The notes below the pieces were generated by a model. It had not been told where the DNA came from, ran no database searches, and saw only the letters and a program-made list of their open reading frames with translations. A stretch of 64,000 nucleotides of DNA from Candidatus Thorarchaeota archaeon (GTDB lineage Archaea > Asgardarchaeota > Thorarchaeia > Thorarchaeales > Thorarchaeaceae), in the NCBI GenBank assembly GCA_020348985.1, contig CP070761.1, forward strand, positions 830,324 through 894,323, written 5' to 3'. How positions within the stretch are numbered: the first letter of the stretch is position 1; each line of letters begins with the position of its first letter. Shown one piece after another: positions 44,012 to 57,068 of this stretch. The position numbers and the translations under genes are program-made.

Positions 44012-45559
44012 CTATTGGGAAGGACGTCGCCTCACGACCATGATGACAAGAAGAACCAGTCCGACAACGCCAACTCCAGCAACCAAAAGCAAGGGTCCAT
44101 ACAAAGTAATTGGGTTTGAAGGCCAGATTGACTCAAGCTCGTTTCCTGCGGCCAACCAAGAGTCAGCGATACCAAGAAGATGGTTTGATATGATGTCCAG
44201 TTCAGCCGTGAATTGCTCAAGTGTTTCACCTAGTGGGTCTTCAGAAGAGCCAGCCTCCACAGTGGCATTGAACTCCTCTGCGATATCAAAAAACGTCCCG
44301 AATACTAACGAGTCACGTTCTGAAATGCCCCCTGGATTCACAAGGCTTCTATTGTCGGCCATTGCTACAAAGTGTGGCAATGCCTCTTCGCCAGCCGCGA
44401 TGAACTCAGACAAATCATAGTCCGGCATTAGAGTCTGAATTGATTCCAGTGCTGCTCTGTAAGAGAGATACTGAAGGGTCAACTGAGCCTCCAGACCGAT
44501 TCCAATGGCCACAAAGGCTATCGCAAGAAACTCTTCAGGATTCTCCCAGGACCAAAACTGGGACAAGTACTCTTCAAGTCCAGCAGATGTCATGTCGGAA
44601 CTTAGGGCACGAAATCCAGTCTCTCCGAAAGAGCCAATCAATGCGTCCGGGCTGTCGGGGGCGTAGGTCTGGGGATTGCCCAACAATCGGTCTCTTATGG
44701 CTGGTCCAAGTATGGAACCCACGTCCTCAGGTCCTTCTCCATTCTGTCGGATTTCCAGAGTTATGTAGTATCTGTTCGCCCAAGCACTATTCAATGCCGT
44801 ATAGGTTATCTCCGAGTAGTTGCCTCTTCCATCATCAGGATAGCCAAATTCTTCTCCAAATGAACCAACACCAGGGTCGGATATGTAGGCGATTCCTAAT
44901 GTTTTGTTGTAACCCACCACAACTACGCCGTGTCCGCCTCCCGTGATTCCTTGTTCTCTGAGAATATCATAGTCGTCAGCCGGTAGCCAAGCAGGGTCGA
45001 CGCTAATCACAAGTGGATATCCATTGTCGATCGATTCTTCTATCAAGCTAAAGGCATCGTTCTCTCCGTCAAGCAAGCCTACATTTACTCCCCAGGATTC
45101 GTATACGTCTATGACGTTCCCGATGCCAGGAGAATCACTGGACAGATACAGGGTGAGATTCAGGCCATAGAGTTGCGACAGTAGAAGTGTTGATCCAAGC
45201 TGGTCATAAAGTGCACCCGGAAGCATAGTCAACGTCTCTTGGTAGTTGAAGTAGGCCCATGAGAACCCTATCGTTGATGCCGCGAAGACGTCATGAAGGT
45301 CCAAAGGAACACCGGCATGTTGAACCACCATAGAAGTTGCGGCCCATGCGCAGAACCCGTTAATCTCTTGCCATACGTATGGAACATCCTGAAGGACAAT
45401 GGCACCGTCAGCTGCGATGGAATTGGTCGTTGATCCTACGCTAGCAGCTGAAGAGGTTGTCGACAAGGGTCTCGGCGAGACCACCAATATCATGAACAGA
45501 ATTGCGGCAACTCTGAGAGACCTCAATGTGCTTCTTGTCCCTTGTCTTGTCAACATCAT
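44012..45559 (-). CDS. Membrane-anchored C39/papain-like peptidase domain protein
   Basis: VPYVWQ..GFCAWAATSM, GHGVVVVGY, ISDPG; C-terminal TM. Confidence 0.8.
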   Translation of the reverse strand: MMLTRQGTRSTLRSLRVAAILFMILVVSPRPLSTTSSAASVGSTTNSIAADGAIVLQDVPYVWQEINGFCAWAATSMVVQHAGVPLDLHDVFAASTIGFSWAYFNYQETLTMLPGALYDQLGSTLLLSQLYGLNLTLYLSSDSPGIGNVIDVYESWGVNVGLLDGENDAFSLIEESIDNGYPLVISVDPAWLPADDYDILREQGITGGGHGVVVVGYNKTLGIAYISDPGVGSFGEEFGYPDDGRGNYSEITYTALNSAWANRYYITLEIRQNGEGPEDVGSILGPAIRDRLLGNPQTYAPDSPDALIGSFGETGFRALSSDMTSAGLEEYLSQFWSWENPEEFLAIAFVAIGIGLEAQLTLQYLSYRAALESIQTLMPDYDLSEFIAAGEEALPHFVAMADNRSLVNPGGISERDSLVFGTFFDIAEEFNATVEAGSSEDPLGETLEQFTAELDIISNHLLGIADSWLAAGNELESIWPSNPITLYGPLLLVAGVGVVGLVLLVIMVVRRRPSQ

Positions 45560-45582
45560 ATAGAACTGTCGATGGAGGCGTG

Positions 45583-45607
45583 GACCGTCCAGTCATACTG
45601 GACGGTC
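45583..45607. repeat. Perfect 11-bp inverted repeat (hairpin or operator)
   Basis: GACCGTCCAGT-CAT-ACTGGACGGTC between two co-oriented genes. Confidence 0.7.
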
Positions 45608-45616
45608 ACTTTCAGG

Positions 45617-47860
45617 CTAATGAAGGTCGAATCTTGACGAATCTGCTACCTCAATGGCAAGAGCGCCATTACCCAAACTGGCAACGAAGCTGCTCGTCCA
45701 CTCAGGCATTGCCGGCTCCGACCCTTCTTCCAATATAGCCTGCCAAGCCTCGTCTGTTAGTCTATCACTCATGGGTTGCGCAAACTCGTAGTAGGAAAAT
45801 GTGCCGCCTCTTGTCAAGACGACTTCACCATTTATGAGGACGGCTACATAGATGAGCATCGGGTAACCGACCGCCTCCTCAAGTACTGTTCCAGAGTTAG
45901 CATCAGTATGGACATCCGCGATGACTGCCATACTATCGTCGGCATCTGAAGTAATCTGCTCATCATTAGGCATGGTTACAATCTCACTAAGGATCATTCC
46001 ACTGTTCTCAATCAAGCCAACCTCTGTTTCATTGAGTGATTGGCCAGTTAGTTCCTTTATGGAGATCTCACGCAGTGACTCCAGAAAATGAAGCAGAGTT
46101 GCGAGTCTGAGTGCAATGACTTCTGAGAGGAGAGATCTCTCATCAAGACCGTCAATCATCATACTGCACAAGGATGCCAATCTTCCATAGACATGGGGCA
46201 CAGGTTCCACGTAACCCTGACCTGGAGAGGGTGGAACAGACGTCTCGTAAGTGTAGGACTGTTTTGCATATAGAATGGTGTCGTGACGCAGTTCGGCCCA
46301 TGAACCTAGGGCGGTCATTAACTGCTTGTCAACCCAGGCCTCACTTTGCATGAATAACGGGTAGCCTTCTCCAGGATCACTTAGAAGAGGGAGCAAACTA
46401 TAGAGCCAAAGATAGTAGAGATTTTTGGTCCATTCGGCGACCGTGATGTTTTCAACCATATCCCAAAGCATTTCCATTTGCTCAACATAGTTGGGATAGT
46501 GTTTCTGATCGTCCAGAAGCTCCCAAGCCCTATCGGAGCCGAGAGCAGCCATTACATCAAGTCCTTTTGGCATCATTCTTCCCCCAACATGCTCGAAGAC
46601 TAGTTGACCCAGAATGTAGCTGTCAGGAATGAAGCGCTGACCCATGAATCGAAGTCCCTTGGTTTTGTTGAGACCTTCTCCTGCGGCAAGACTCGTTGAC
46701 AGAATCGTTGGATCTCTTAATAGGACTGCAGCCTCAATGAATTCAGAGAGAAGCTGATCATTGTCCAATGCAGTGAGCACAACTTCTGTCCCATATATAT
46801 CGGCAATGAGATTCAAATACTCAGTCGGTAGCAAGTCGTCGGCATCTCCGACAAAGAAGACAGTGGGTTGATAGACTGCCTCCCACACTTCATAACCAGT
46901 GACTCCTGGCGGAAGAGTATCTATCTCGTCTTGAAGTGCCAACGTAACTAGTATTGCCTGTGCGGTCTCGTCAAATCCCTTTGGATTAGGTGACAGGATA
47001 CCATCCGGGATGAGACGGAACACAATCCGTCCGTACCACATCAGAGCCTTGAAGTATCTTTCCAAGAGCTCGCTTCTCGTGTAGTGACCTCTCGGCACGT
47101 ACTGGCTGAAATCTTCGTCATAGCCCATGAACCATTCATTGGATATTCCAGCATGAGCGTCAATCAAGGAGATTACTTCATCGACGAGCTCAATCACTTC
47201 TGAGGGGATTGTGGCATCATCATCTAGCAGTTTCAGAGTAACCGAAAAGTATGCCACATTTCGAAGAGCTGCATCACTCCATCGTCCTTCTGGGGCGCCT
47301 AGGTACTGCTCATAGGATGATTCCAGCATGGAAACCGTAAGATTCCCAATGAGATCCCAGAATGAATACACCTCAACTTCTCGCAATGCAAGATCATACA
47401 ACACATGAAACGCATGCAATACCGCATCTGACGACACGAATGATGGGAACAGACTGTCATTGTTGTCTTCAAGGATTTCGTGAATCTGCTTGAACTGGAA
47501 CTGCGGCACTGCAGCAAATCCGTTTTGCTCAATCAGTGTTATCACCGAGGTTCCTAACGCAGGATAAGAAGCGAGATTGACTACGTTCGATAGCCCAGGG
47601 GATACTGAGTATTCAGGAGCATTGGGGGTGATATCCTCATCATACGGAACGAAGTCTGCAAAACTGGTTGGCACAATCGTGTCTATGGTATAGAATGGAA
47701 CGTTCGGGTGACCATCAGGGATAATCCCTGGTGGGAAGCCACCAAGAAGAAAAAGGCTCATCACCAGACTGGTAGCAAGAATCCCAGAGATTAGTCCACT
47801 CGCAACCATTTTGCTCTTCGTTTGTGTATCAATTGTCTTGATTATCCGGTGCGGCATCAT
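45617..47860 (-). CDS. DUF3160 family surface protein
   Basis: SDAVLHAFH, DFSQYVPRGHYT, FMGQRFIPDS, GSWAELRHDTILYAKQ, ADVHT, GGTFSYYEF; start trimmed to MMPH. Confidence 0.88.
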   Translation of the reverse strand: MMPHRIIKTIDTQTKSKMVASGLISGILATSLVMSLFLLGGFPPGIIPDGHPNVPFYTIDTIVPTSFADFVPYDEDITPNAPEYSVSPGLSNVVNLASYPALGTSVITLIEQNGFAAVPQFQFKQIHEILEDNNDSLFPSFVSSDAVLHAFHVLYDLALREVEVYSFWDLIGNLTVSMLESSYEQYLGAPEGRWSDAALRNVAYFSVTLKLLDDDATIPSEVIELVDEVISLIDAHAGISNEWFMGYDEDFSQYVPRGHYTRSELLERYFKALMWYGRIVFRLIPDGILSPNPKGFDETAQAILVTLALQDEIDTLPPGVTGYEVWEAVYQPTVFFVGDADDLLPTEYLNLIADIYGTEVVLTALDNDQLLSEFIEAAVLLRDPTILSTSLAAGEGLNKTKGLRFMGQRFIPDSYILGQLVFEHVGGRMMPKGLDVMAALGSDRAWELLDDQKHYPNYVEQMEMLWDMVENITVAEWTKNLYYLWLYSLLPLLSDPGEGYPLFMQSEAWVDKQLMTALGSWAELRHDTILYAKQSYTYETSVPPSPGQGYVEPVPHVYGRLASLCSMMIDGLDERSLLSEVIALRLATLLHFLESLREISIKELTGQSLNETEVGLIENSGMILSEIVTMPNDEQITSDADDSMAVIADVHTDANSGTVLEEAVGYPMLIYVAVLINGEVVLTRGGTFSYYEFAQPMSDRLTDEAWQAILEEGSEPAMPEWTSSFVASLGNGALAIEVADSSRFDLH

Positions 47861-48038
47861 ACTTTCAGAAGAGTACAGATTGTACTTAGTACCATAGTTT
47901 AGAACGACCAAGGCGGAATTGGCCAGGCGATTGAGGGCGGCTGTCCATAGATTAGAACAGGCAACTCTGGGCAACAGTTTACAGCGAAGGATAATGTTAA
48001 TTGGTCGGGCAAATGGTCACAGCGTGGGGAGACTCGAC

Positions 48039-48491
48039 TTGTCCCAGAGCTCAGATGACGAAGATCTTGAACCAGCCCTCAGAGGCACCACCCTACGCGT
48101 ATACTGGTTCATGCTCCAAGAGGGAAATCCGGTCGGTGTTCGTCAGGTTCAGAGAGCGCTCGGCATGTCAAGCCCCTCAGTAGCGAGTCATCATCTGTCC
48201 AAGCTCGAATCACTTGAGTTAGTGGAGAAAGGACCTGACAATTCCTACGAGCTAAAGAGAATTGTGAAGGTAGGAGTCCTCAAGAACTTCGTCACATTTC
48301 GGGGAGTGATGCTCCCTAGGTATGCATTCTTTGCTGTGTTTTTCACTGCATTTACAACGGCATATCTTGTCATTGCATCTATGACCTCAGTTACTTTGTT
48401 TGACCGGTACGTTGCAATGGCTGTGGGTATAGCGGGCGCCGTTTTTGGTTGGCTTGAGACCTATCGACTATGGAAGCTGAAATTCGCCTAA
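48039..48491 (+). CDS. Winged-HTH regulator with two C-terminal TMs
   Basis: LRGTTLRVYW..VGVRQVQRALGMSSPSVASHHLSKL; likely TTG start at 48039. Confidence 0.8.
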   Translation: MSQSSDDEDLEPALRGTTLRVYWFMLQEGNPVGVRQVQRALGMSSPSVASHHLSKLESLELVEKGPDNSYELKRIVKVGVLKNFVTFRGVMLPRYAFFAVFFTAFTTAYLVIASMTSVTLFDRYVAMAVGIAGAVFGWLETYRLWKLKFA

Positions 48492-48569
48492 TGCGGCCTT
48501 TGGAGGATAGGACCTGGAGAGCAATCTTTATTCGCATTATAGCCTGACGCTTTCGAAGCCAGAGGTAGA

Positions 48570-49655
48570 ATGATGAACTACCACCTAGTCTTGACAAGGA
48601 GATGCAATCTGAACTGCTCCTATTGTCGAGGCGGCGAGGAAGATGGCCCTAATTCCGATATTCAGTACTCGTTGGATGATCTCAAACGGTTTCTACAGAC
48701 GGACCGTAATTTGCAGATTATGTTCTACGGTGGTGAGCCCACCCTCCGCATTCCGCTCATGCTAGACATTATGGGCCGGTTTGACGGCGCAAGGTTCATG
48801 CTACAGACAAACGCACTACTCCTGAACAAGATTCCGTTTGACCATGTGAAGAAGTTTCATTCAATTCTAGTATCGATTGACGGTCCAAGAGGAACAACGG
48901 ATGGATACAGATCTGCCGGCGTCTATGATAGAGTTGTAGGAAACGTACGATGGCTTAGGTCAAACGGATTCGAAGGTGACATTATTGCACGGATGGCGAT
49001 ATCAGAGCAAAGCGATGTCTATCGAGATGTGAGGCACCTCTTGGATCTGACGGACCCGTCTTTCGATCATGTCCATTGGCAGCTAAACGTTGTGTGGGAT
49101 GCAGAGGACAACTGGACCGATTTCGATGGTTGGATTCGCACAGTCTACAAACCGGGGATAGAAAGGCTAGCCAGAGAATGGGTTGAAAGGATGGAATTTG
49201 GAATAGTCGAAGGGATTGTCCCCTTCTTGCCCATTATGCATGGTCTTCTGACAGGAGAAAGCTCAGGTCTCAGGTGTGGGTCTGGGATTGACACTTTCGC
49301 GATCCATGTAGATGGACGAATAGGAGTGTGCCCAATATCACCGGATTGGGACTTTTCCATTGTAGGTGACATTTGGGAATCCAGTCCTGCAGATCTGAAG
49401 GACACGATGTCAGTGGATGAGCCGTGTCCGAGCTGCGGCGAATTCGAATTATGCGGAGGTAGGTGTCTCTTTGCCAACAAGGAAAGACTCTGGGGAGAGG
49501 AGGGCTTCAAGAAAGTCTGCGGAACTGTGGAGCACCTCATAGGTCGCTTGAGGAGTAAGGTTCCTAAGGTCCAGAGCTTCATTGACGATGGGCGCATTTC
49601 TCTTCAAGACTTCAGCTACCCAGAATTCAATAACGGCTGCGAGATTGTGCCATAG
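48570..49655 (+). CDS. Radical SAM/SPASM protein, archaeal AF_0577-like
   Basis: CNLNCSYC, YGGEP, SIDG, CGSG...CP, CPSC....CGGRC, C-terminal NNGCEIVP. Confidence 0.88.
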   Translation: MMNYHLVLTRRCNLNCSYCRGGEEDGPNSDIQYSLDDLKRFLQTDRNLQIMFYGGEPTLRIPLMLDIMGRFDGARFMLQTNALLLNKIPFDHVKKFHSILVSIDGPRGTTDGYRSAGVYDRVVGNVRWLRSNGFEGDIIARMAISEQSDVYRDVRHLLDLTDPSFDHVHWQLNVVWDAEDNWTDFDGWIRTVYKPGIERLAREWVERMEFGIVEGIVPFLPIMHGLLTGESSGLRCGSGIDTFAIHVDGRIGVCPISPDWDFSIVGDIWESSPADLKDTMSVDEPCPSCGEFELCGGRCLFANKERLWGEEGFKKVCGTVEHLIGRLRSKVPKVQSFIDDGRISLQDFSYPEFNNGCEIVP

Positions 49656-49669
49656 TAAGGATAAGTCTT

Positions 49670-50224
49670 CTAGAGGTCTTCTTCTTCAACAACCTCAGGT
49701 TCTCGTAGGTCCTTCATCATGACGATGATCTCTTCCTTATTTCGCTTCAAACGTTTGGTCTCAACGTATCCTAGTCTCTGGAAGAAAGTTCCCTGATACT
49801 CAATGTATCCGTAGACCTCAATCTCAACGCAAGTTGCATTCATGTGCTCAAGTAGATTTTCAGCATATTCAACCATTAGCGTTCCTATGCTCCTCTTACG
49901 AAACTTCGATCTGACAGCAAGTCTTTCGATGACCCCTACGGTTCCACTCATGCTAACCCTCATAGTTCCTACAACAAGTTCGCCAACGAGAGCCACGTAG
50001 ATGTTGCCCATCTGGATGTGTCTCGAAATCTTCCCAAGTCCTTCATCTAGTGCGGCCGGAGTCCTAGAGAGCCTTTTCTTGACTGGTTTGTAGGCTTCGG
50101 CAATGATGGACTTGACTAGGTCCACCTCTCCGAGCTCTGCTCTCCTAATTGTGACTTCGGCGTAATTGTAAATTGGGTGAACCCCCTGAATCGCACTTCT
50201 CCAGTGTATGTCGCAAATCATCAT
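49670..50224 (-). CDS. GNAT acetyltransferase (true start probably downstream of 50224)
   Basis: RLAVRSKFRKRSIG, FFQRLGY. Confidence 0.85.
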   Translation of the reverse strand: MMICDIHWRSAIQGVHPIYNYAEVTIRRAELGEVDLVKSIIAEAYKPVKKRLSRTPAALDEGLGKISRHIQMGNIYVALVGELVVGTMRVSMSGTVGVIERLAVRSKFRKRSIGTLMVEYAENLLEHMNATCVEIEVYGYIEYQGTFFQRLGYVETKRLKRNKEEIIVMMKDLREPEVVEEEDL

Positions 50225-50387
50225 AAATGATTTGGGCGCGGCACAAGTGGGCAGTTCAGGTCATCGATGTTTGGTAGATGGCACTCTCGTAGCCAGAATC
50301 CATGGCCAAGAAAGCCGTAAGTACGACTAGCCAACACTTATGTCTGTGTCTGCAAAACACATTGTTGTTTACCGAGGAGGTAGGCCT

Positions 50388-50537
50388 ATGGGAGAAGAAG
50401 AAAATGATGATGAAGTTGTAGATTCTCAGAAGATGAGCTCACGTGACAAGAAAGAGCTTCAAGAAGGGCTCTGCGTCAATTGTGCAATTGTGTCTGTGGT
50501 TCTCTCATTCCTGCTTACGCTTCTTATGGTTCTTTGA
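50388..50537 (+). CDS. Small tail-anchored membrane protein
   Basis: GGAGG SD, then MGEEENDDE...; C-terminal hydrophobic helix. Confidence 0.55.
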   Translation: MGEEENDDEVVDSQKMSSRDKKELQEGLCVNCAIVSVVLSFLLTLLMVL

Positions 50538-50721
50538 CATAGGGAGACTTGTGCCCCGAGTGCTGTTCCACCTTTAATACTTGAAACAGAGGAAGAGAAA
50601 GCAAGACAGGCACAATCAAGAAAGAGAAGGGAGGAGGGTCTTTAGAAGCGAGATTTGGGACCCATTGAATGGTAGTTGCATTATCCAATCAGAGTGTACC
50701 ACTTCTAGGTGGTTATGGTCA

Positions 50722-53700
50722 TCAATTTGATTGATCCAGTCCTTTAGCGATTTCATCAATAGTTGTTGGGAGCATCGCGATGTCTTCTCCAAGACCTTGA
50801 ATTTCTAGATATGATTTTGTGCTTCCCAGAGTTCCAGTAATGAAGAGTCTTAGCGCTAACTTCTTCTTTGTGTATTTTCCTTCAGCAAAACCTCTTACGA
50901 TTCCTCTGAAAACACCTTCATCTATTGTTCTACTTGAATCTATGATGCGGAAGTTTCTTGCTGGAAGAAGAGTCAATGCTTTTGAGAACAAAACCTCAGG
51001 ATCCTGATTCAATTCCCGCTTTTCCTTAGTGGCTGCCATCTCATTTAACAAGAATTCAAATTCCGTCAGAGATGATTCGAGTGGAGTAAGTAAGTCACAT
51101 ACTGAACGAATGACATAGGGTTCGACAGGAATTACCTGGGTTTGATTCTGATGATCAATATATGACACTGTAGTGAGAATCTGACCTTCAACGCAGTCCT
51201 TCGTTGGAGTTAGATTGAATTGAGGAGACCTAAAACCGCCTGGTTCTATTCGTGCTATCTTTTTCAATCGCTCTCCTGACAGTTCCATGCAGTCTTCGGG
51301 GTATGCGACGATAGTCACTATGACATTATTGATTACGCTCTTTGTGTCGTTTTTCACTTTCACTTTGTACTCAAATTCATCGCCTACTATCTCTGCACCT
51401 CTGAGTACTTCAACTCGGCCAATCGAGGGTGGTTCAATTTCTGCTACTGGTGTTACTTTGGGTTTGCCTTTTAGTCGAACACGTGAAAGAATAACCAAGA
51501 CTGCCACTATACCGACACCGCCTGCGGCAACAAGAGTCATTGTAACGTCTGCACCATCTCCAGTAAATCCAGTAGCGGACCACACAGTAGTTTCAACATT
51601 ACATGTAAACTCAGTTATACCATGGACTTCTTCGCTTGTGACTTGTCTAGTCGTATATCGATACGCTCGGCCATCATTGCGATCCGTGAATAGTGACTTG
51701 TTTGAGTCAGTGAAAGACATCCACCATGAGCCATTTCGTTCAATTACGATTTGATAACTAGTACATGGAGAATTATCATAATCAAATGAGACTGAAAGAG
51801 TGAAAGTAACTTCTTGTCCATTTGCCACTGCTTCAGAACTTGCCTGAATATCAATGACTAATCTATCCCAGATAACCGAAACAAACTGACTATTCTGATC
51901 TACTTGGGTTATCCCTTGAGTGTTTCCAGAGCATGCAACAGAATCAAAGGTGTTGGCCGTGACACTTGTCTCAATATCAGTGAAATTCCAATGACCACCA
52001 CTTCCAGAATAGCTTGCACTAATCGAGTTTATCATGACTATGCCATCAATTACAGGTGACATATCATACTCATAGTAAATCTGAACACTAAGCCATGCTT
52101 GGTCATTTATGTTAAGATGTGAATACTCTACCCAATACCCTTGCACTTGGATCCGATCGGAAATGTATGTATCTTGATAGGCGGTATAAAGTAGATCAGT
52201 TCCTGAGAATCCATCACCTTCTCCAACTACTATGATTGTGAGTATGTTTTCACCAACTTGATCATCAGCATATCCTGTGATGTCAAAATTACCATCCGCA
52301 AATGAAGGGTCAGTCCAAGGGCCAACACTATTCCCATAATCTGTCATTGAAACCCATACATCTGTTTCATTGTCTGATGGAAAGTTGTCACCTGAACCAA
52401 AGTAGACTAGTGTTCCAGTAACATAGAATATGCTGTTCAGGTCACCTCTATCTGTTGGTCCCACGTCATCATCAATTGTCAAACTAAGAATGTCAAGACG
52501 GGTTTCAATATCCCAATTGCTCTCATAAAAATCGGAATCGAACTCACTTGAAGTGTCGTTGACAAACTGCTTCACATCAATGTCCATGATATCAGGATGG
52601 CTCCAGCTAATCTTGACATGCCATGTAATATCGATTGAATTGACGGACTTGACATATGAACTCCAAGTTGCCAAGGTAAGAGATCCTGAGCCATTGAAAA
52701 TCGAGAATTGATTTGTGTCCTCATCGAATATGAGTGTCCAGTAGTTAGTAGTTCTACTATTATCAAATAGGAGAAGTATCACTTTGTCGATGTCTGAATA
52801 ACCATCTGGGTCACTCACATTGGTCGTTATGAAATAGTAATGGTATTTGGCATAGAGATAGGTTGTATCGTCAGGATTTATCAGGACAGGAGATACATCA
52901 TTCACAGGATTTTGGTTCGGAATTTGAGTCCAAACGACTTGTTCAACATTGGTAACGAACATAGTAAGACCGTATGTACTCTCACTAACTCCAGCACCAG
53001 TAGTGTTTGCCCTGTATGTATATGTTACATCTGAACCAGTGTCGTTGAAGAGGGTCTTGTTAGCATCAGTAAAAACTTGCCAATCACTGACGTTTCTATG
53101 AAATTGAATCGTATAGGTCGTACATGGTAGATTGTCATAGTCGTATACGACTGTCAAAACGAAATTGACTTGAACACCGTTATTTGGTGTTTCATCGTCC
53201 GCTTGAATATCTATGACAAGTCTATCCCAAATGATGTTTGTTGATTGACCATTTACATTGACAACTGTTATTCCATAAGTACTGTCAAGAGCCCCAGTGG
53301 AGTTCACGAAATAACCAAGTCGACCTATGATGTCATATGATCCTGTCACCAGTTCAAAATGATCTGTCTGCCATGTCATAGCAGAATTATTCATGTAGAG
53401 TGTGTCACCGCTCGTAAGAAGAGTATTGTCATATTCAAGTTCAGCTGTCACACTAATTGTAGCAGATGACCAGATATCTATTCGATTATCATTCGCCGAA
53501 GTAGACAGGATCCTAATTCGGTCCCAAATACAGAATGTATACCAATCTCCTGTGTAACTAGCTATTGCTGTGATTCCATGCGAGTCCCCAGACGGGCTAC
53601 CTGGATCGTAGGCACGTCTGCCAACAGTATCGTACTGGAATGTTGTATCGTTCCACGCGAAAACGCCGTCAAAGCTGGTATTATCGAAATTATATCTGGC

Positions 53701-55251
53701 AGTCACAACGATACCGGATGCGTTCTCATTGACACTGATTCGTTGGTTAGTCGGTCCAGTGATGGTCACATTCAGAGAATCCCAAATAACATAGTTCGCA
53801 CCATCAAAACCAATTACAGAAATGTAGTAGACGGGATCGGTGACGGATATGACACGATAACCTCTTTTTCCAACGGTCGTATATAGGAACGTTGTATGAT
53901 TCAATGTTAGTGTGCCCGAAAACTGTGTCCAATCTGATTCATAGTAGGCAAATACTGTAATACCTGATGCATTTTGATTGACGTTAATTCGATGGTCAGG
54001 TATTGTTATATTGCATGACAAAGAGTCCCAGGTTTGCGTAATTGATTGACCATTCTGGTCAACCGCTCCAGCCAGACTATGAGAACCTCCAGAAAATGTG
54101 ACTGAATTGTATGTAAAAGCTTGAGCGGTCGCTTTCGTGTCCACAATTATCCAACCAGAGTAACTAGCCCAGTAGGTTGCGCTAACTCCATTTACGGTAA
54201 CTGTGCCAGTCGTCACCAAGGAATCATCATAATCATAGTAAATGATCAGCAATTGCTTGGCGGGAACATTGATGTCTATTCTTGATGAGTTTAGTTGACT
54301 GTATGATTGAACTTGAACACGGTCTGCAATATAGGAATCAGATGGTGAAAGAGTATAGTATAGATCTGAACCTCCAAAACCAGCTCCTTCTTCAACTATT
54401 TTGACAGTGTACCAGTCTAGGCCTACTTGATCATCAGCATAGCAAGTAATATCGAAAGCTCCTGATGGAATGATTGTATCACTCCATGGTCCTAGAACAC
54501 TTCCATATTGTGGTGCTGAAACCCATGCATCAATTTGATTTGAAGGAGGATTCAAAGTGGATCCACGATAAGTAGTTGTCCCAGTAATGTGGAAAACCTC
54601 ATCAAGATCTCCCCGGTCAACTGTTCCGCCATCGTCACTAGTCACACTTGGAATAACAGAATAATCGAGGCGTGTTTCAATGTCCCAATTCACTTCATAC
54701 CAATCAGCATCAGAAGTTGCGTTATAATCATAGACGTACTGGTAAACATCAACATCTGCTGAAGCGAGATGGTACCAATCTATTCGTAATACGAAAGTTG
54801 CATCGATATCATTTCCAGATCTAGTTGCGCTGCAAGAACCAGTTTGTAGTGCAATGTTCCCTGAACTTCCGACCTCTGAGAAAGTGTTAAGGTTTTCATC
54901 ATATTTGACCTTCCAATACTCAGTAATTCGATTATTATCATATAGAGATAGTTCGATATACTCTATTGCTTGGTAGCCATCTGGGACTGATACATAAGCT
55001 GTAATCTGATAGTCTCTCAATTGAGCATACATATTATCAGTGTCATCTGGGTTTTGCAATACTGGAGCCTGGTCATTAACTGGATTAAATGAAAGCTCAT
55101 GATGTTTTTCTGGACAAATTCCTGTTATTGGTACCTCCATTGCCCTCTCGATTACATTTGACACGTTTATTAACGACATTATGATGGTGAAGCAAACTAT
55201 AGAAGTTATCAGAATAAGAACTCGGTTCTTTGGTCCAAACATGTAACCCAT
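50722..55251 (-). CDS. Large repetitive cell-surface glycoprotein (type I membrane) with cytoplasmic adaptin/coatomer-appendage-like domain
   Basis: N-terminal signal/TM; duplicated ~350-aa module plus WD(S/R)L beta repeats; many NxS/T sequons; TM followed by a basic stop-transfer; ~230-aa cytoplasmic domain. Confidence 0.85.
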   Translation of the reverse strand: MGYMFGPKNRVLILITSIVCFTIIMSLINVSNVIERAMEVPITGICPEKHHELSFNPVNDQAPVLQNPDDTDNMYAQLRDYQITAYVSVPDGYQAIEYIELSLYDNNRITEYWKVKYDENLNTFSEVGSSGNIALQTGSCSATRSGNDIDATFVLRIDWYHLASADVDVYQYVYDYNATSDADWYEVNWDIETRLDYSVIPSVTSDDGGTVDRGDLDEVFHITGTTTYRGSTLNPPSNQIDAWVSAPQYGSVLGPWSDTIIPSGAFDITCYADDQVGLDWYTVKIVEEGAGFGGSDLYYTLSPSDSYIADRVQVQSYSQLNSSRIDINVPAKQLLIIYYDYDDSLVTTGTVTVNGVSATYWASYSGWIIVDTKATAQAFTYNSVTFSGGSHSLAGAVDQNGQSITQTWDSLSCNITIPDHRINVNQNASGITVFAYYESDWTQFSGTLTLNHTTFLYTTVGKRGYRVISVTDPVYYISVIGFDGANYVIWDSLNVTITGPTNQRISVNENASGIVVTARYNFDNTSFDGVFAWNDTTFQYDTVGRRAYDPGSPSGDSHGITAIASYTGDWYTFCIWDRIRILSTSANDNRIDIWSSATISVTAELEYDNTLLTSGDTLYMNNSAMTWQTDHFELVTGSYDIIGRLGYFVNSTGALDSTYGITVVNVNGQSTNIIWDRLVIDIQADDETPNNGVQVNFVLTVVYDYDNLPCTTYTIQFHRNVSDWQVFTDANKTLFNDTGSDVTYTYRANTTGAGVSESTYGLTMFVTNVEQVVWTQIPNQNPVNDVSPVLINPDDTTYLYAKYHYYFITTNVSDPDGYSDIDKVILLLFDNSRTTNYWTLIFDEDTNQFSIFNGSGSLTLATWSSYVKSVNSIDITWHVKISWSHPDIMDIDVKQFVNDTSSEFDSDFYESNWDIETRLDILSLTIDDDVGPTDRGDLNSIFYVTGTLVYFGSGDNFPSDNETDVWVSMTDYGNSVGPWTDPSFADGNFDITGYADDQVGENILTIIVVGEGDGFSGTDLLYTAYQDTYISDRIQVQGYWVEYSHLNINDQAWLSVQIYYEYDMSPVIDGIVMINSISASYSGSGGHWNFTDIETSVTANTFDSVACSGNTQGITQVDQNSQFVSVIWDRLVIDIQASSEAVANGQEVTFTLSVSFDYDNSPCTSYQIVIERNGSWWMSFTDSNKSLFTDRNDGRAYRYTTRQVTSEEVHGITEFTCNVETTVWSATGFTGDGADVTMTLVAAGGVGIVAVLVILSRVRLKGKPKVTPVAEIEPPSIGRVEVLRGAEIVGDEFEYKVKVKNDTKSVINNVIVTIVAYPEDCMELSGERLKKIARIEPGGFRSPQFNLTPTKDCVEGQILTTVSYIDHQNQTQVIPVEPYVIRSVCDLLTPLESSLTEFEFLLNEMAATKEKRELNQDPEVLFSKALTLLPARNFRIIDSSRTIDEGVFRGIVRGFAEGKYTKKKLALRLFITGTLGSTKSYLEIQGLGEDIAMLPTTIDEIAKGLDQSN

Positions 55252-55664
55252 ATCCCCCTTTCCAAGATCTGAATAGGATTAACATCTTCGGGTTGCTATG
55301 TAGGAATTACCAAAATCCAGGTACAATTCTCTGACACTTTTGGCAAACCCGTTTCACATTTCATGATTGGTCTGCGATATAAGTCTGCGGACAATCGCCA
55401 TTGTCGCAATCAATTCTATTGAAAAGATACGTTCTTGAGTGTAGCTGCTGTAATTCTGCAATCTTCGATTCTCATCACAGGGACAATTGTTGGTGCTGGC
55501 ACCTCCCACCAAGAGATCTGCTTGGCATCCTTACCAAGAGCAGATGTGCTAGCAAACATCCTCATGTTGTTGTCATTGGTCCTCAAAGCGCTGATTGGAT
55601 AAGCCTCCGAACCTGTCCAAGAGTCCAATCAAAGAATAAGAGAGGGGGCTAGGTGCCCCCACAG

Positions 55665-57068
55665 CTAATCCTCTTCTTCGTCCTCTTCTTCACCAAGGCG
55701 TCTAGCACGGCCAAGTCGGCGGCTATCATCGACACGTAGTCGACGAGAATCAGGAGGCGCAATTGCATCGGATGGTTCTCTTTCACCTTTTGGCTCGTAC
55801 TCCTCAGGAGCTTCAGAGGCCCTCAGGATTTCTTCATCCACTTCTCCTTCTTCGAAGACCTCACCCTCATCTCTTGCCCTCTCGACGATTCGTTCAACTC
55901 GTTCTACGCGAAGATAGTAGATCATTGTGAACATGGCCATGAGTGGGAATGCGAGGAGTTTTGCGATGTCCCTAAACAAGAAAGTGGCGAAGTTGACTTC
56001 TGCTGTCCAGAATCCAGGGAAGAACCAGCCGCCAATGGCTGAGCCGGATCCTGAGGCAGCGATTATGCTGTCGACAAAGAAGAATCCACTGGCCAGGAAG
56101 AATGTTATCAGAGGTCCTAGGTCTCTTGTTCGAGCTTTAGATTCCTCAACTTCTTCGGTTACGGTTCTTCCAATACCACTCATTGCATAAACCAGGAAGA
56201 ACAAAGACATGGCAATGTCAACAGCTTCCATCGAGGGAGCCGATGATCTCCTCATCACATTGAACAAGAAGTAGCCCGAGTAAATGGAAATGAACAAGGT
56301 TAGAAGACTGATATTGATTGCAGCTCCTTTGGTCGCATACCTGAAGTAGGAGAGAAGTGAAATCAGGGCAAAGAGCCCCAACAGCCCAAATGCTCCTAAC
56401 AGGAAGGGGAAGTGCAAAGAGACATTGTCCTGGAATTCTGGGAACACAGGGCCCAATAGAGCACTGATTCCGAACATATCTCCTGGGATTACAACTAGGG
56501 CAACTACTGCTTCAGCTGCTATGATGCCAATCCCGATAATCAGTATGATGAAGGCGAGAATGCCTGTGCCAATACCTCCCTTCTTCGGTTCAGCAATTGT
56601 CGCAATCCGCAGACTAGTCCTTGATGATAGGTAGCCTTGGAATCCAATCCACCCCACCCAACAGAATGCTGCGAATATGAAGAGAATAGCTTCTCCGAGG
56701 AATATCGACATCCACACAGAAATTGCAAACGAGACCGCTAGCCAGGCCACACCCTTCATCTCAGTCACACGACCTCGGCCTCGCCTTGTAATCCAAAGCC
56801 GATCTAGCCTCAGAGCGAGCAGCAATGTCCCGATCATGAAGTAGATTGTGCCCGTCGCACCGAGATATGCGAAAGTGGTTATCAGAATCGTCTCAATCGT
56901 TGTTCCAATCACCCATGTTTGAGACAGTAGGAACGAAACGAAGAATGACAAGAAAACTGTCATGACAAAAATGATCAGATAGGCCACGTAGCGCCTCGTT
57001 TTGAAGAACACTTTCAGGCCTTCAACAATGCCAGAAAGAATAGGAATACCCAAAACATCATCCTCCAA
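55665..57068 (-). CDS. Polytopic membrane protein (~10-11 TM) with acidic C-tail
   Basis: Multiple hydrophobic segments; charged tail. Confidence 0.8.
   Translation of the reverse strand: MEDDVLGIPILSGIVEGLKVFFKTRRYVAYLIIFVMTVFLSFFVSFLLSQTWVIGTTIETILITTFAYLGATGTIYFMIGTLLLALRLDRLWITRRGRGRVTEMKGVAWLAVSFAISVWMSIFLGEAILFIFAAFCWVGWIGFQGYLSSRTSLRIATIAEPKKGGIGTGILAFIILIIGIGIIAAEAVVALVVIPGDMFGISALLGPVFPEFQDNVSLHFPFLLGAFGLLGLFALISLLSYFRYATKGAAINISLLTLFISIYSGYFLFNVMRRSSAPSMEAVDIAMSLFFLVYAMSGIGRTVTEEVEESKARTRDLGPLITFFLASGFFFVDSIIAASGSGSAIGGWFFPGFWTAEVNFATFLFRDIAKLLAFPLMAMFTMIYYLRVERVERIVERARDEGEVFEEGEVDEEILRASEAPEEYEPKGEREPSDAIAPPDSRRLRVDDSRRLGRARRLGEEEDEEED

Follow-up and report, generated by a model that had tools for sequence, protein, structure and literature searches.

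An appendage-like (ear) module predicted on the cytoplasmic tail of a large Thorarchaeal surface protein

In eukaryotic vesicle coats the appendage domains, or ears, act as hubs at which partners dock, and a module of this kind is predicted at the inner end of a large surface protein encoded in the DNA analyzed here, a 64,000-nucleotide window of the Candidatus Thorarchaeota archaeon contig CP070761.1 (assembly GCA_020348985.1, positions 830,324 to 894,323 of the forward strand). The gene is a single open frame of 1509 codons (Table 1) and its product, as read from the translation and a predicted model, has a surface-exposed body, a single membrane pass and a two-subdomain tail module that matches the coat ears. 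It is most likely a type I membrane protein, similar to a surface glycoprotein, from an Asgard archaeon of Thorarchaeota type, and its cytoplasmic end is probably a true ear module, which would serve as a passive docking platform coupling the surface protein to intracellular machinery. That numerous surface proteins of Asgard archaea carry such a module on their inner tails would bear on the origin of cargo selection and coat recruitment.

The tail that follows the membrane helix is 254 residues long up to the stop codon, and the ear module itself takes up about 230 of them. A single-sequence AlphaFold2 model of the tail reached a predicted local distance difference test score (pLDDT) of only 36, and the model computed with an alignment of the tail and 50 relatives of at most 560 aa (alignment A1, relatives 28-58% identical) reached a pLDDT of 93.6 with a predicted template-modeling score of 0.77. 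In the latter, eight strands at tail residues 25-128 (pLDDT 93-98) form an immunoglobulin (Ig)-like beta-sandwich, which is followed directly by an alpha/beta platform at residues 133-251 that runs strand-helix-strand-helix, four strands and a final helix. This predicted secondary structure agrees with the sandwich-then-platform parsing given in the first-pass annotation of the DNA, which was made from the letters alone. All of the strings quoted there (MTLVAAGGVGIVAVLVIL/SRVRLKGKPK, FEYKVKVKNDT, VINNV, IEPGGFRSPQFNL, GQILTTVSY, DLLTPLESSLTEFEFLLNEM and LEIQGLGEDIAMLPTTIDEI) are present in the translation, within the last 272 residues of the protein. Its start coordinate, 51560, misses the reading frame by one base, and the in-frame coordinates are 50725-51486 for the tail (254 aa) and 50725-51540 for the tail with the helix.

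When the model was compared with the PDB using Foldseek, the top match was chain H of 9qpq, a 243-residue chain of the COPI leaf that we take to be the beta-COP appendage (E 2e-10, TM-score 0.66, 237 columns), followed by AP-2 alpha ears, a beta2 ear and gamma-COP ears, with BBSome chains further down. The best whole-module matches are thus those of beta-COP/COPI, alpha-adaptin, beta2-adaptin and gamma-COP, which upholds the earlier suggestion of a likeness to coat appendages. Three structure searches were concordant for the ear fold of the tail, the alignment of every ear match included the sandwich part, and both subdomains of the model superpose jointly on the coat ears, in the same order and with the same mutual packing. 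The alternative that an Ig-like sandwich and a helix-grip or TATA-binding protein (TBP)-like domain were joined by chance and are unrelated to coat appendages is considered very improbable. That the predicted tail has the same fold and the same two-domain arrangement as the coat ears is well supported, and it is reasonable to infer homology with the eukaryotic ears. A protein-language-model comparison, whose scores are leads only, placed an unnamed archaeal cluster first (0.94; 243 aa; Methanobacteriota being its commonest phylum), with two more unnamed clusters next (0.85 and 0.84), and the named clusters listed were all eukaryotic appendages of the adaptin, COPI or AP-3 type (0.79-0.83). Two cysteines of the tail, C98 and C130, are each shared by at least 90% of the ears in the alignment of 51; the former lies in the loop before sandwich strand 7 and the latter at the sandwich-platform junction V-C-D-L-L-x-P (window 50725-51414).

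The module is far from unique to this gene. A search with the tail among 1.84 billion proteins gave 473 cluster representatives at E<=1e-3, 139 of them at E<=1e-30, and a search with a single ear protein gave six loci in Thorarchaeota, Promethearchaeota and metagenome-assembled genomes of uncultured archaea. The window protein and the best 149 distinct matches, 150 proteins in all, were examined for domain layout. These range from 99 to 2867 aa and carry the ear nearly always near the C-terminus; the 144 with a full ear have one or two upstream helices (64), a multipass region (39) or none (41). Among the 149 relatives scanned with Pfam, the parts that precede the ear, whether outer or soluble, include right-handed beta-helix/NosD, SBBP propellers with DUF7948, LVIVD repeats, TSP3, a family-5 solute-binding protein, PKD/Big (Ig) domains, LanC-like or glycosidase-like domains, PQQ and WD40 propellers, LRR, TPR, HEAT in P0091, TIR in P0135 and a BBS2_Mid/Itfg2-type propeller in P0145. 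What follows the ear is equally varied: a zinc ribbon in 93 of the 150 and a zinc ribbon with extra sequence behind it in four more, nothing in 13 (the window protein among them), a tail of about 75 aa in six (five of these with a common winged-helix motif that ends in ...YFPGL), a longer extension in 23 and one other arrangement, with ten proteins truncated. The 23 longer extensions are a coiled coil whose end is hydrophobic, a double winged-helix-like region with a terminal helix, or a roadblock/longin-like part. Judging from these layouts, the ear is an exchangeable cassette set behind many different ectodomains. In this survey of fusions, which the first-pass annotation had proposed, the ear thus follows a range of ectodomains that are unrelated to one another, as well as membrane domains of the multipass type and repeat domains of soluble proteins.

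The distribution of the module among genomes is likewise broad and uneven. Sampling 301 genomes of the phylum gave an ear match in 136, with 70/76 in the family to which this genome belongs and 52/68, 5/5 and 6/7 in three others, and with the window ear as query there was no match in several families (0/28, 0/19 and 0/21). Ear copies per genome run from zero to at least eight, tandem arrays included. Some individual relatives have layouts of their own. P0091, the sole listed relative with HEAT repeats before the ear, looks like an adaptin in miniature; P0145 joins a BBS2_Mid propeller (33.5 bits, cut-off 27) to an ear and a zinc ribbon; P0135 has a propeller, a TIR domain and an ear; and P0150 has an ear with a PCI winged helix. 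Soluble frames of about 760 aa occur in many genomes of the family, 51-56% identical to the window ear [here C1:2443497-2445776 of this genome, G000 (L019:7498-9777)], and the representatives of this length (P0003-P0007) consist of two tandem ears and a terminal zinc ribbon. This two-ear protein may be a core member of the ear family.

The tail is predicted to lie inside the cell because of the lysine and arginine (K/R) bias around the helix and the zinc ribbons that follow the ear in relatives. The window protein has only two strongly hydrophobic stretches by hydropathy (aa 10-30 and aa 1238-1255). No K/R residue is present in the 15 residues before the second of these, and there are five in the 15 after it. 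The same holds for relatives: in the 85 that have a helix at most 120 aa upstream of the ear, the K/R excess lies on the ear side in 80, on the opposite side in none and is tied in five (means 3.9 vs 0.24). Composition agrees, with 1.2% Lys between the two helices compared to 7.5% Lys and 9.4% Glu in the tail, and the ectodomain has 22 N-x-S/T sequons where 16 would be expected from its composition. The ribbon found after the ear in 97 of the 150 proteins is of the C4 type (W-x-C-x2-C...C-x2-C), and a zinc ribbon of this type is a module of the reducing cytoplasm. The topology check that had been proposed for the tail therefore came out as cytoplasmic, on the basis of hydropathy, K/R bias and the zinc ribbons of relatives. 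At the other end of the protein, the public gene call (P0002) starts at residue 38 and gives 1472 aa, so that the hydrophobic signal is lost. The longer start was kept because many ectodomain homologues also open with a similar hydrophobic segment; the stretch it adds is built of n-, h- and c-regions, as a signal peptide or anchor is, a GGGGG motif is found immediately 5' of the first ATG, and Shine-Dalgarno-like motifs precede both candidate ATGs.

The copy in the window is intact as an ear. Of the alignment columns conserved to at least 90%, it matches the consensus at all 26, and of those conserved to at least 70% at 59 of 60, and therefore it is not decayed. A pseudogenized zinc ribbon 3' of the stop was considered and rejected, since no CxxC...CxxC remnant is present in any frame of 50225-50760 and none lies between the stop and the next gene. 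Contigs from three public sediment runs (two studies) span the stop codon with no differences, so the short, ribbon-less end is real. In a FastTree tree of 148 ear segments, the window ear is grouped with three others (support 0.95), two with a ribbon and one without, and this group is nested in a clade of 14-17 that holds most of the ribbon-less ears, which suggests that the ribbon was lost within the subgroup of the window ear.

The ectodomain contains a large internal duplication (repeats A and B in Table 1; 46% identity over 361 columns, E 3e-90) and matches no Pfam or NCBIfam family. Assigning it to a named fold was also tried, and the feature-score leads to archaeal Ig-like surface proteins were all below 0.9, so no fold is named. 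Besides its own record it has 87 homologues, those with names being mostly Thorarchaeota 'hypothetical proteins', and an ear is present in none of the 87, many of which are partial; their tails are short and basic, acidic, or made of LTKKELLELIPDD-type repeats. From these comparisons the window gene is a one-off combination of two Thorarchaeal families, and an ear on an otherwise ear-less ectodomain family shows that tails are swapped among Thorarchaeal surface proteins. The same fact could be turned around to argue that the junction between ectodomain and ear is an assembly chimera, or that the tail is extracellular after all; in favor of such an artifact, no listed contig piece bridges the transmembrane junction (these are low-depth contigs) and the public gene call drops the signal sequence. 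Yet the genome is one 3.16-Mb contig, sequencing run X1 gives depth in 30 of 30 bins across the gene, the 3' end is identical in runs of two studies, and the K/R bias and the zinc ribbons of relatives favor an inside location of the tail, so that an artifact of either kind is extremely improbable in our estimate.

The ear of the window protein differs from its eukaryotic counterparts mainly in what it is attached to. It comes after a transmembrane helix and a 24-residue linker and not after a soluble HEAT/ARM large subunit and a flexible hinge. The AP-2 alpha ears (1w80, 1b9k, 3hs8) and beta2 ears (1e42, 2iv9, 3h1z), whose motif pockets are the FxDxF, DPF and WxxF sites, have 7-9% identity to the window ear, and, unlike the AP-2 adaptins, the window protein has neither a clathrin-binding hinge nor a trunk. 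BBSome subunits with a GAE domain and platform (6vbu, 6xt9, 6voa) score far below the coat ears, and the window protein lacks a propeller. The beta-COP appendage of COPI (9qpq chain H; 5nzr chain B) is 14% identical, with no signal of the Pfam family Coatamer_beta_C in the window ear, and it sits on a soluble coat subunit, after a HEAT trunk and a hinge, where the window ear is carried behind the transmembrane helix of a surface protein. Chain B of 5nzr is named 'Coatomer subunit beta (appendage region)' in a row of the supplement to Makarova et al. (2024, mBio 15:e00335-24).

Archaeal ears, including membrane-linked ones, are already in print, and the window gene adds one more member. Passages of Makarova et al. 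(2024, mBio 15:e00335-24) describe appendage-like regions, composed of an Ig-like and a TBP-like domain and including a form with a zinc ribbon, in archaeal neighborhoods of the endosomal sorting complex required for transport (ESCRT). They also describe Meth_adaptin (arCOG15284), of which WP_013898578.1 has a GOLD domain, a transmembrane helix, and the Ig-like and TBP-like domains, and Asgard multidomain proteins that combine an appendage with Vps28-C and longin and are proposed to be analogues of ESCRT-0 (Makarova et al., 2024). The Ig-like plus TBP/helix-grip definition of these regions describes the window tail as well. The family of the window ear has in common with them the fold assignment and an ear tied to an outer domain via a membrane helix, and relatives of the window ear share zinc ribbons, winged helices and longin-like modules beside the ear. 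Unlike these published ears, the window gene lies outside an ESCRT neighborhood and its product has no zinc ribbon, winged helix, Vps28-C or longin, and its ectodomain belongs to a Thorarchaeal beta-repeat family as opposed to the GOLD domain of WP_013898578.1. The likeness to arCOG15284 is one of description, for which the hint from the sequence side is the feature score of 0.94 to the archaeal cluster, a lead only. The idea of a receptor with a built-in adaptor, which the first-pass annotation had put forward, is likewise not new, as a transmembrane-linked appendage-like region appears in Makarova et al. (2024). Two further reports concern coat subunits in Asgard archaea: appendage domains that Pfam defines for AP complexes can be detected in Asgard genomes, where they are separate from each other (Eme et al., 2023), and AP and COPI subunits together with a BBS7/ITFG2 cluster are among the Asgard-eukaryote groups of a 2026 structural-clustering preprint. 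What is particular to the window gene is that its ear has no zinc ribbon and that its ectodomain family is otherwise ear-less.

How the ear might act can be sketched by analogy. Eukaryotic ears are passive hubs that bind short motifs, and the window ear, which would be held about 24 residues below the inner membrane face, probably docks short motifs or small domains of cytosolic proteins in the same way. Docking would then link the surface protein in cis to machinery for sorting, turnover or anchoring and, as this copy is ribbon-less, any output would have to come from the ear itself. The zinc ribbon, the ESCRT-II-type winged helix and the roadblock/longin-like part seen in relatives point towards the ESCRT and small-GTPase systems that Makarova et al. 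(2024) proposed.

Several results weigh against this reading of the tail as a docking ear. Its fold is known from a predicted model and not from a solved structure, and identity to the structural matches is only 7-15%. The appendage families of Pfam that were looked for (Alpha_adaptinC2, Alpha_adaptin_C, B2-adapt-app_C, Coatamer_beta_C and COP-gamma_platf) gave no adaptin or COPI appendage match to the tail at E<=1, and of the 166 Pfam families to which the 51 sequences of A1 had matches (E<=1), the 25 that were listed include no appendage family. None is listed for the 149 relatives scanned either, and the Pfam and NCBIfam scans gave no family for the tail or for the whole 1509-aa protein, so that by these profiles the ear is not a member of the appendage Pfam families. 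Comparison of the ear-family profile with PDB sequences produced no appendage at E<=10 and chance-level matches only, as did phmmer with the tail. The window copy lacks the zinc ribbon or winged helix of most relatives, whose behavior may not transfer to it, and one genome of the same genus (98% complete) has no match to the window-ear query, which implies that the module is dispensable. Nor do the surroundings of the gene suggest a partner. The neighbors of the window gene (a GNAT acetyltransferase, a TIGR04084 radical-SAM/SPASM protein, a DUF3160 protein, a C39-like peptidase, a solute-binding protein, an ABC ATPase and a 467-aa open reading frame) offer no functional link and no candidate partner. 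The ESCRT locus (EAP30, Vps25, Vps4 and Snf7; C1:2.969-2.973 Mb, C1 being the contig) is about 2.09 Mb away with none of the eight ear genes of the genome near it, and thus neither the neighborhood nor the position of the ESCRT locus reveals a partner, coat or ESCRT linkage for the window gene.

These last observations also bear on a more specific proposal, in which the ear is an ESCRT-coupled sorting tag that docks on ESCRT-II-like or ubiquitin-binding machinery, as an analogue of ESCRT-0, and the surface protein is sorted into vesicles or removed from the membrane. Such a role has been proposed for Asgard ear proteins in a passage of Makarova et al. (2024), a full ESCRT locus is present in this genome, and relatives fuse the ear to ESCRT-II-type parts. 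In P0066 it is joined to EAP30/Vps36 (38.4 bits vs a cut-off of 26.8), the five related tails of about 75 aa carry a Vps22-type winged helix, and in P0100 the C-terminal 81 residues can be aligned with winged helix 2 of the Vps22-like protein of this genome (hhalign 94.8%, E 5e-8, 33% identity). The zinc ribbons of relatives weakly match zf-Sec23_Sec24 (13/51) and Vps36-NZF-N (6/51). However, these ribbon matches are under the Pfam cut-offs, a fusion may stand in for an interaction instead of reporting one, and the window copy has neither the ribbon nor the winged helix and, like the other seven ear genes, lies away from the ESCRT locus, which makes the ESCRT-coupled tag unlikely for this protein.

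Ears might also bind each other, or an element of a cytoskeleton or membrane skeleton, and so cluster or immobilize surface proteins with no sorting involved. The at least eight ear genes that a genome can hold, some in tandem arrays, and the conservation of the two-ear soluble proteins of about 760 aa across the family would fit such a structural or anchoring role, as would the conserved basic residues R29, K41 and K43 and the G-K-Y-T-x-K loop, which together with the 24-residue tether would set the ear against the membrane. The variety of effector-like modules at the C-termini of relatives (zinc ribbon, winged helix, roadblock/longin-like part and coiled coil) fits a signaling or sorting hub better, and a purely structural role is regarded as distinctly unlikely. 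A bolder reading is a long shot: ear-tailed surface proteins could be self-adapting cargo, in which the ear recruits zinc-ribbon, winged-helix or longin partners and drives glycoproteins into buds or internal vesicles. If this were true, they would represent a stage of traffic with cargo and adaptor in one polypeptide, predating the soluble AP and COPI adaptors of eukaryotes, and the window copy, having no ribbon, would demonstrate that the ear by itself suffices for docking. Internal vesicles with a luminal coat resembling the cell surface have been described in a Heimdallarchaeon, according to a passage of a preprint (10.1101/2025.11.06.686947), and this makes a sorting device for surface proteins directly testable. 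The gain from the window gene is modest in this respect, namely a ribbon-less ear and a minimal construct (aa 1276-1509) with which partners could be sought.

Table 1. Features of the ear-tailed surface-protein gene, in window coordinates.
Feature	Residues	Position	Strand	Remarks
Whole gene	1509 aa	50722..55251	-	signal/anchor, ectodomain, transmembrane helix and ear tail; open reading frame list, translation
N-terminal signal peptide or signal anchor	aa 1-36	55144..55251	-	hydrophobic core about aa 10-30, hydropathy peak 2.5
Ectodomain	aa 37-1237	51541..55143	-	Asp/Ser/Thr/Asn-rich, 22 N-x-S/T sequons
Internal repeat A of ectodomain	aa 56-415	54007..55086	-	BLASTP, half vs half
Internal repeat B of ectodomain	aa 781-1135	51847..52911	-	BLASTP, half vs half
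Transmembrane helix	aa 1238-1255	51487..51540	-	hydropathy 2.4
Juxtamembrane linker, basic, proline-containing	tail residues 1-24	51415..51486	-	sequence; pLDDT 66-87 (lower)
Ear subdomain 1, beta-sandwich	tail residues 25-128	51103..51414	-	predicted model
Ear subdomain 2, alpha/beta platform	tail residues 129-251	50734..51102	-	starts at conserved junction V-C-D-L-L-x-P
Last three residues and stop codon, then no zinc ribbon		50722..50733	-	stop at 50722-50724

The genome is 86% complete by marker count, and its eight ear genes, the others being 36-59% identical to the window ear, lie at 0.67, 0.73, 0.88, 2.21, 2.44, 2.65 (two genes) and 3.15 Mb of C1. Six of the eight have the zinc ribbon, which is absent from the window gene and from a frame of 351 codons at 0.67 Mb. 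Around the other seven, 94 open reading frames were scanned. At about 0.733 Mb, a gene for a soluble ear with a zinc ribbon [paralogue 8; L022:7386-8327 (-)] is head-to-head with an SPFH/Band-7 plus zinc-ribbon gene [L022:8578-9450 (+)], an arrangement that resembles the published neighborhood of Meth_adaptin. As a conserved link this adjacency was rejected, as the SPFH gene is present in 38 of 41 genomes of the family and an ear lies within 1.5 kb of it at one of 30 loci, that of this genome. Paralogue 2, an ear-tailed membrane protein [L016:5118-6050 (-)] whose frame reaches the last base of the contig, is divergent from a gene for a 743-aa protein with C-terminal HEAT repeats [L016:6178-8406 (+)], next to which is an ankyrin-repeat protein [L016:8476-11223 (-)]. 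At the ESCRT locus, a 521-aa open reading frame without a Pfam family adjoins the Snf7 gene [L015:7975-9540 (-), about 2.973 Mb]. Named homologues of the EAP30 protein from this locus, like those of the ectodomain, are nearly all labeled Thorarchaeota or Promethearchaeota.

Within the window, the 467-aa open reading frame directly upstream of the surface-protein gene [55665-57068 (-)] matches no Pfam or NCBIfam family. The G+C content over the surface-protein gene (window 50001-56000) is 0.41-0.43 compared to 0.46-0.51 in most of the window, which could come from Asn/Asp/Ser/Thr-rich coding or from a variable, recently shuffled gene. The C39-like peptidase (515 aa), the DUF3160 protein (785 aa; 626 bits) and the TIGR04084 radical-SAM/SPASM protein are encoded together at 44012-49655 and may form a peptide-maturation set.

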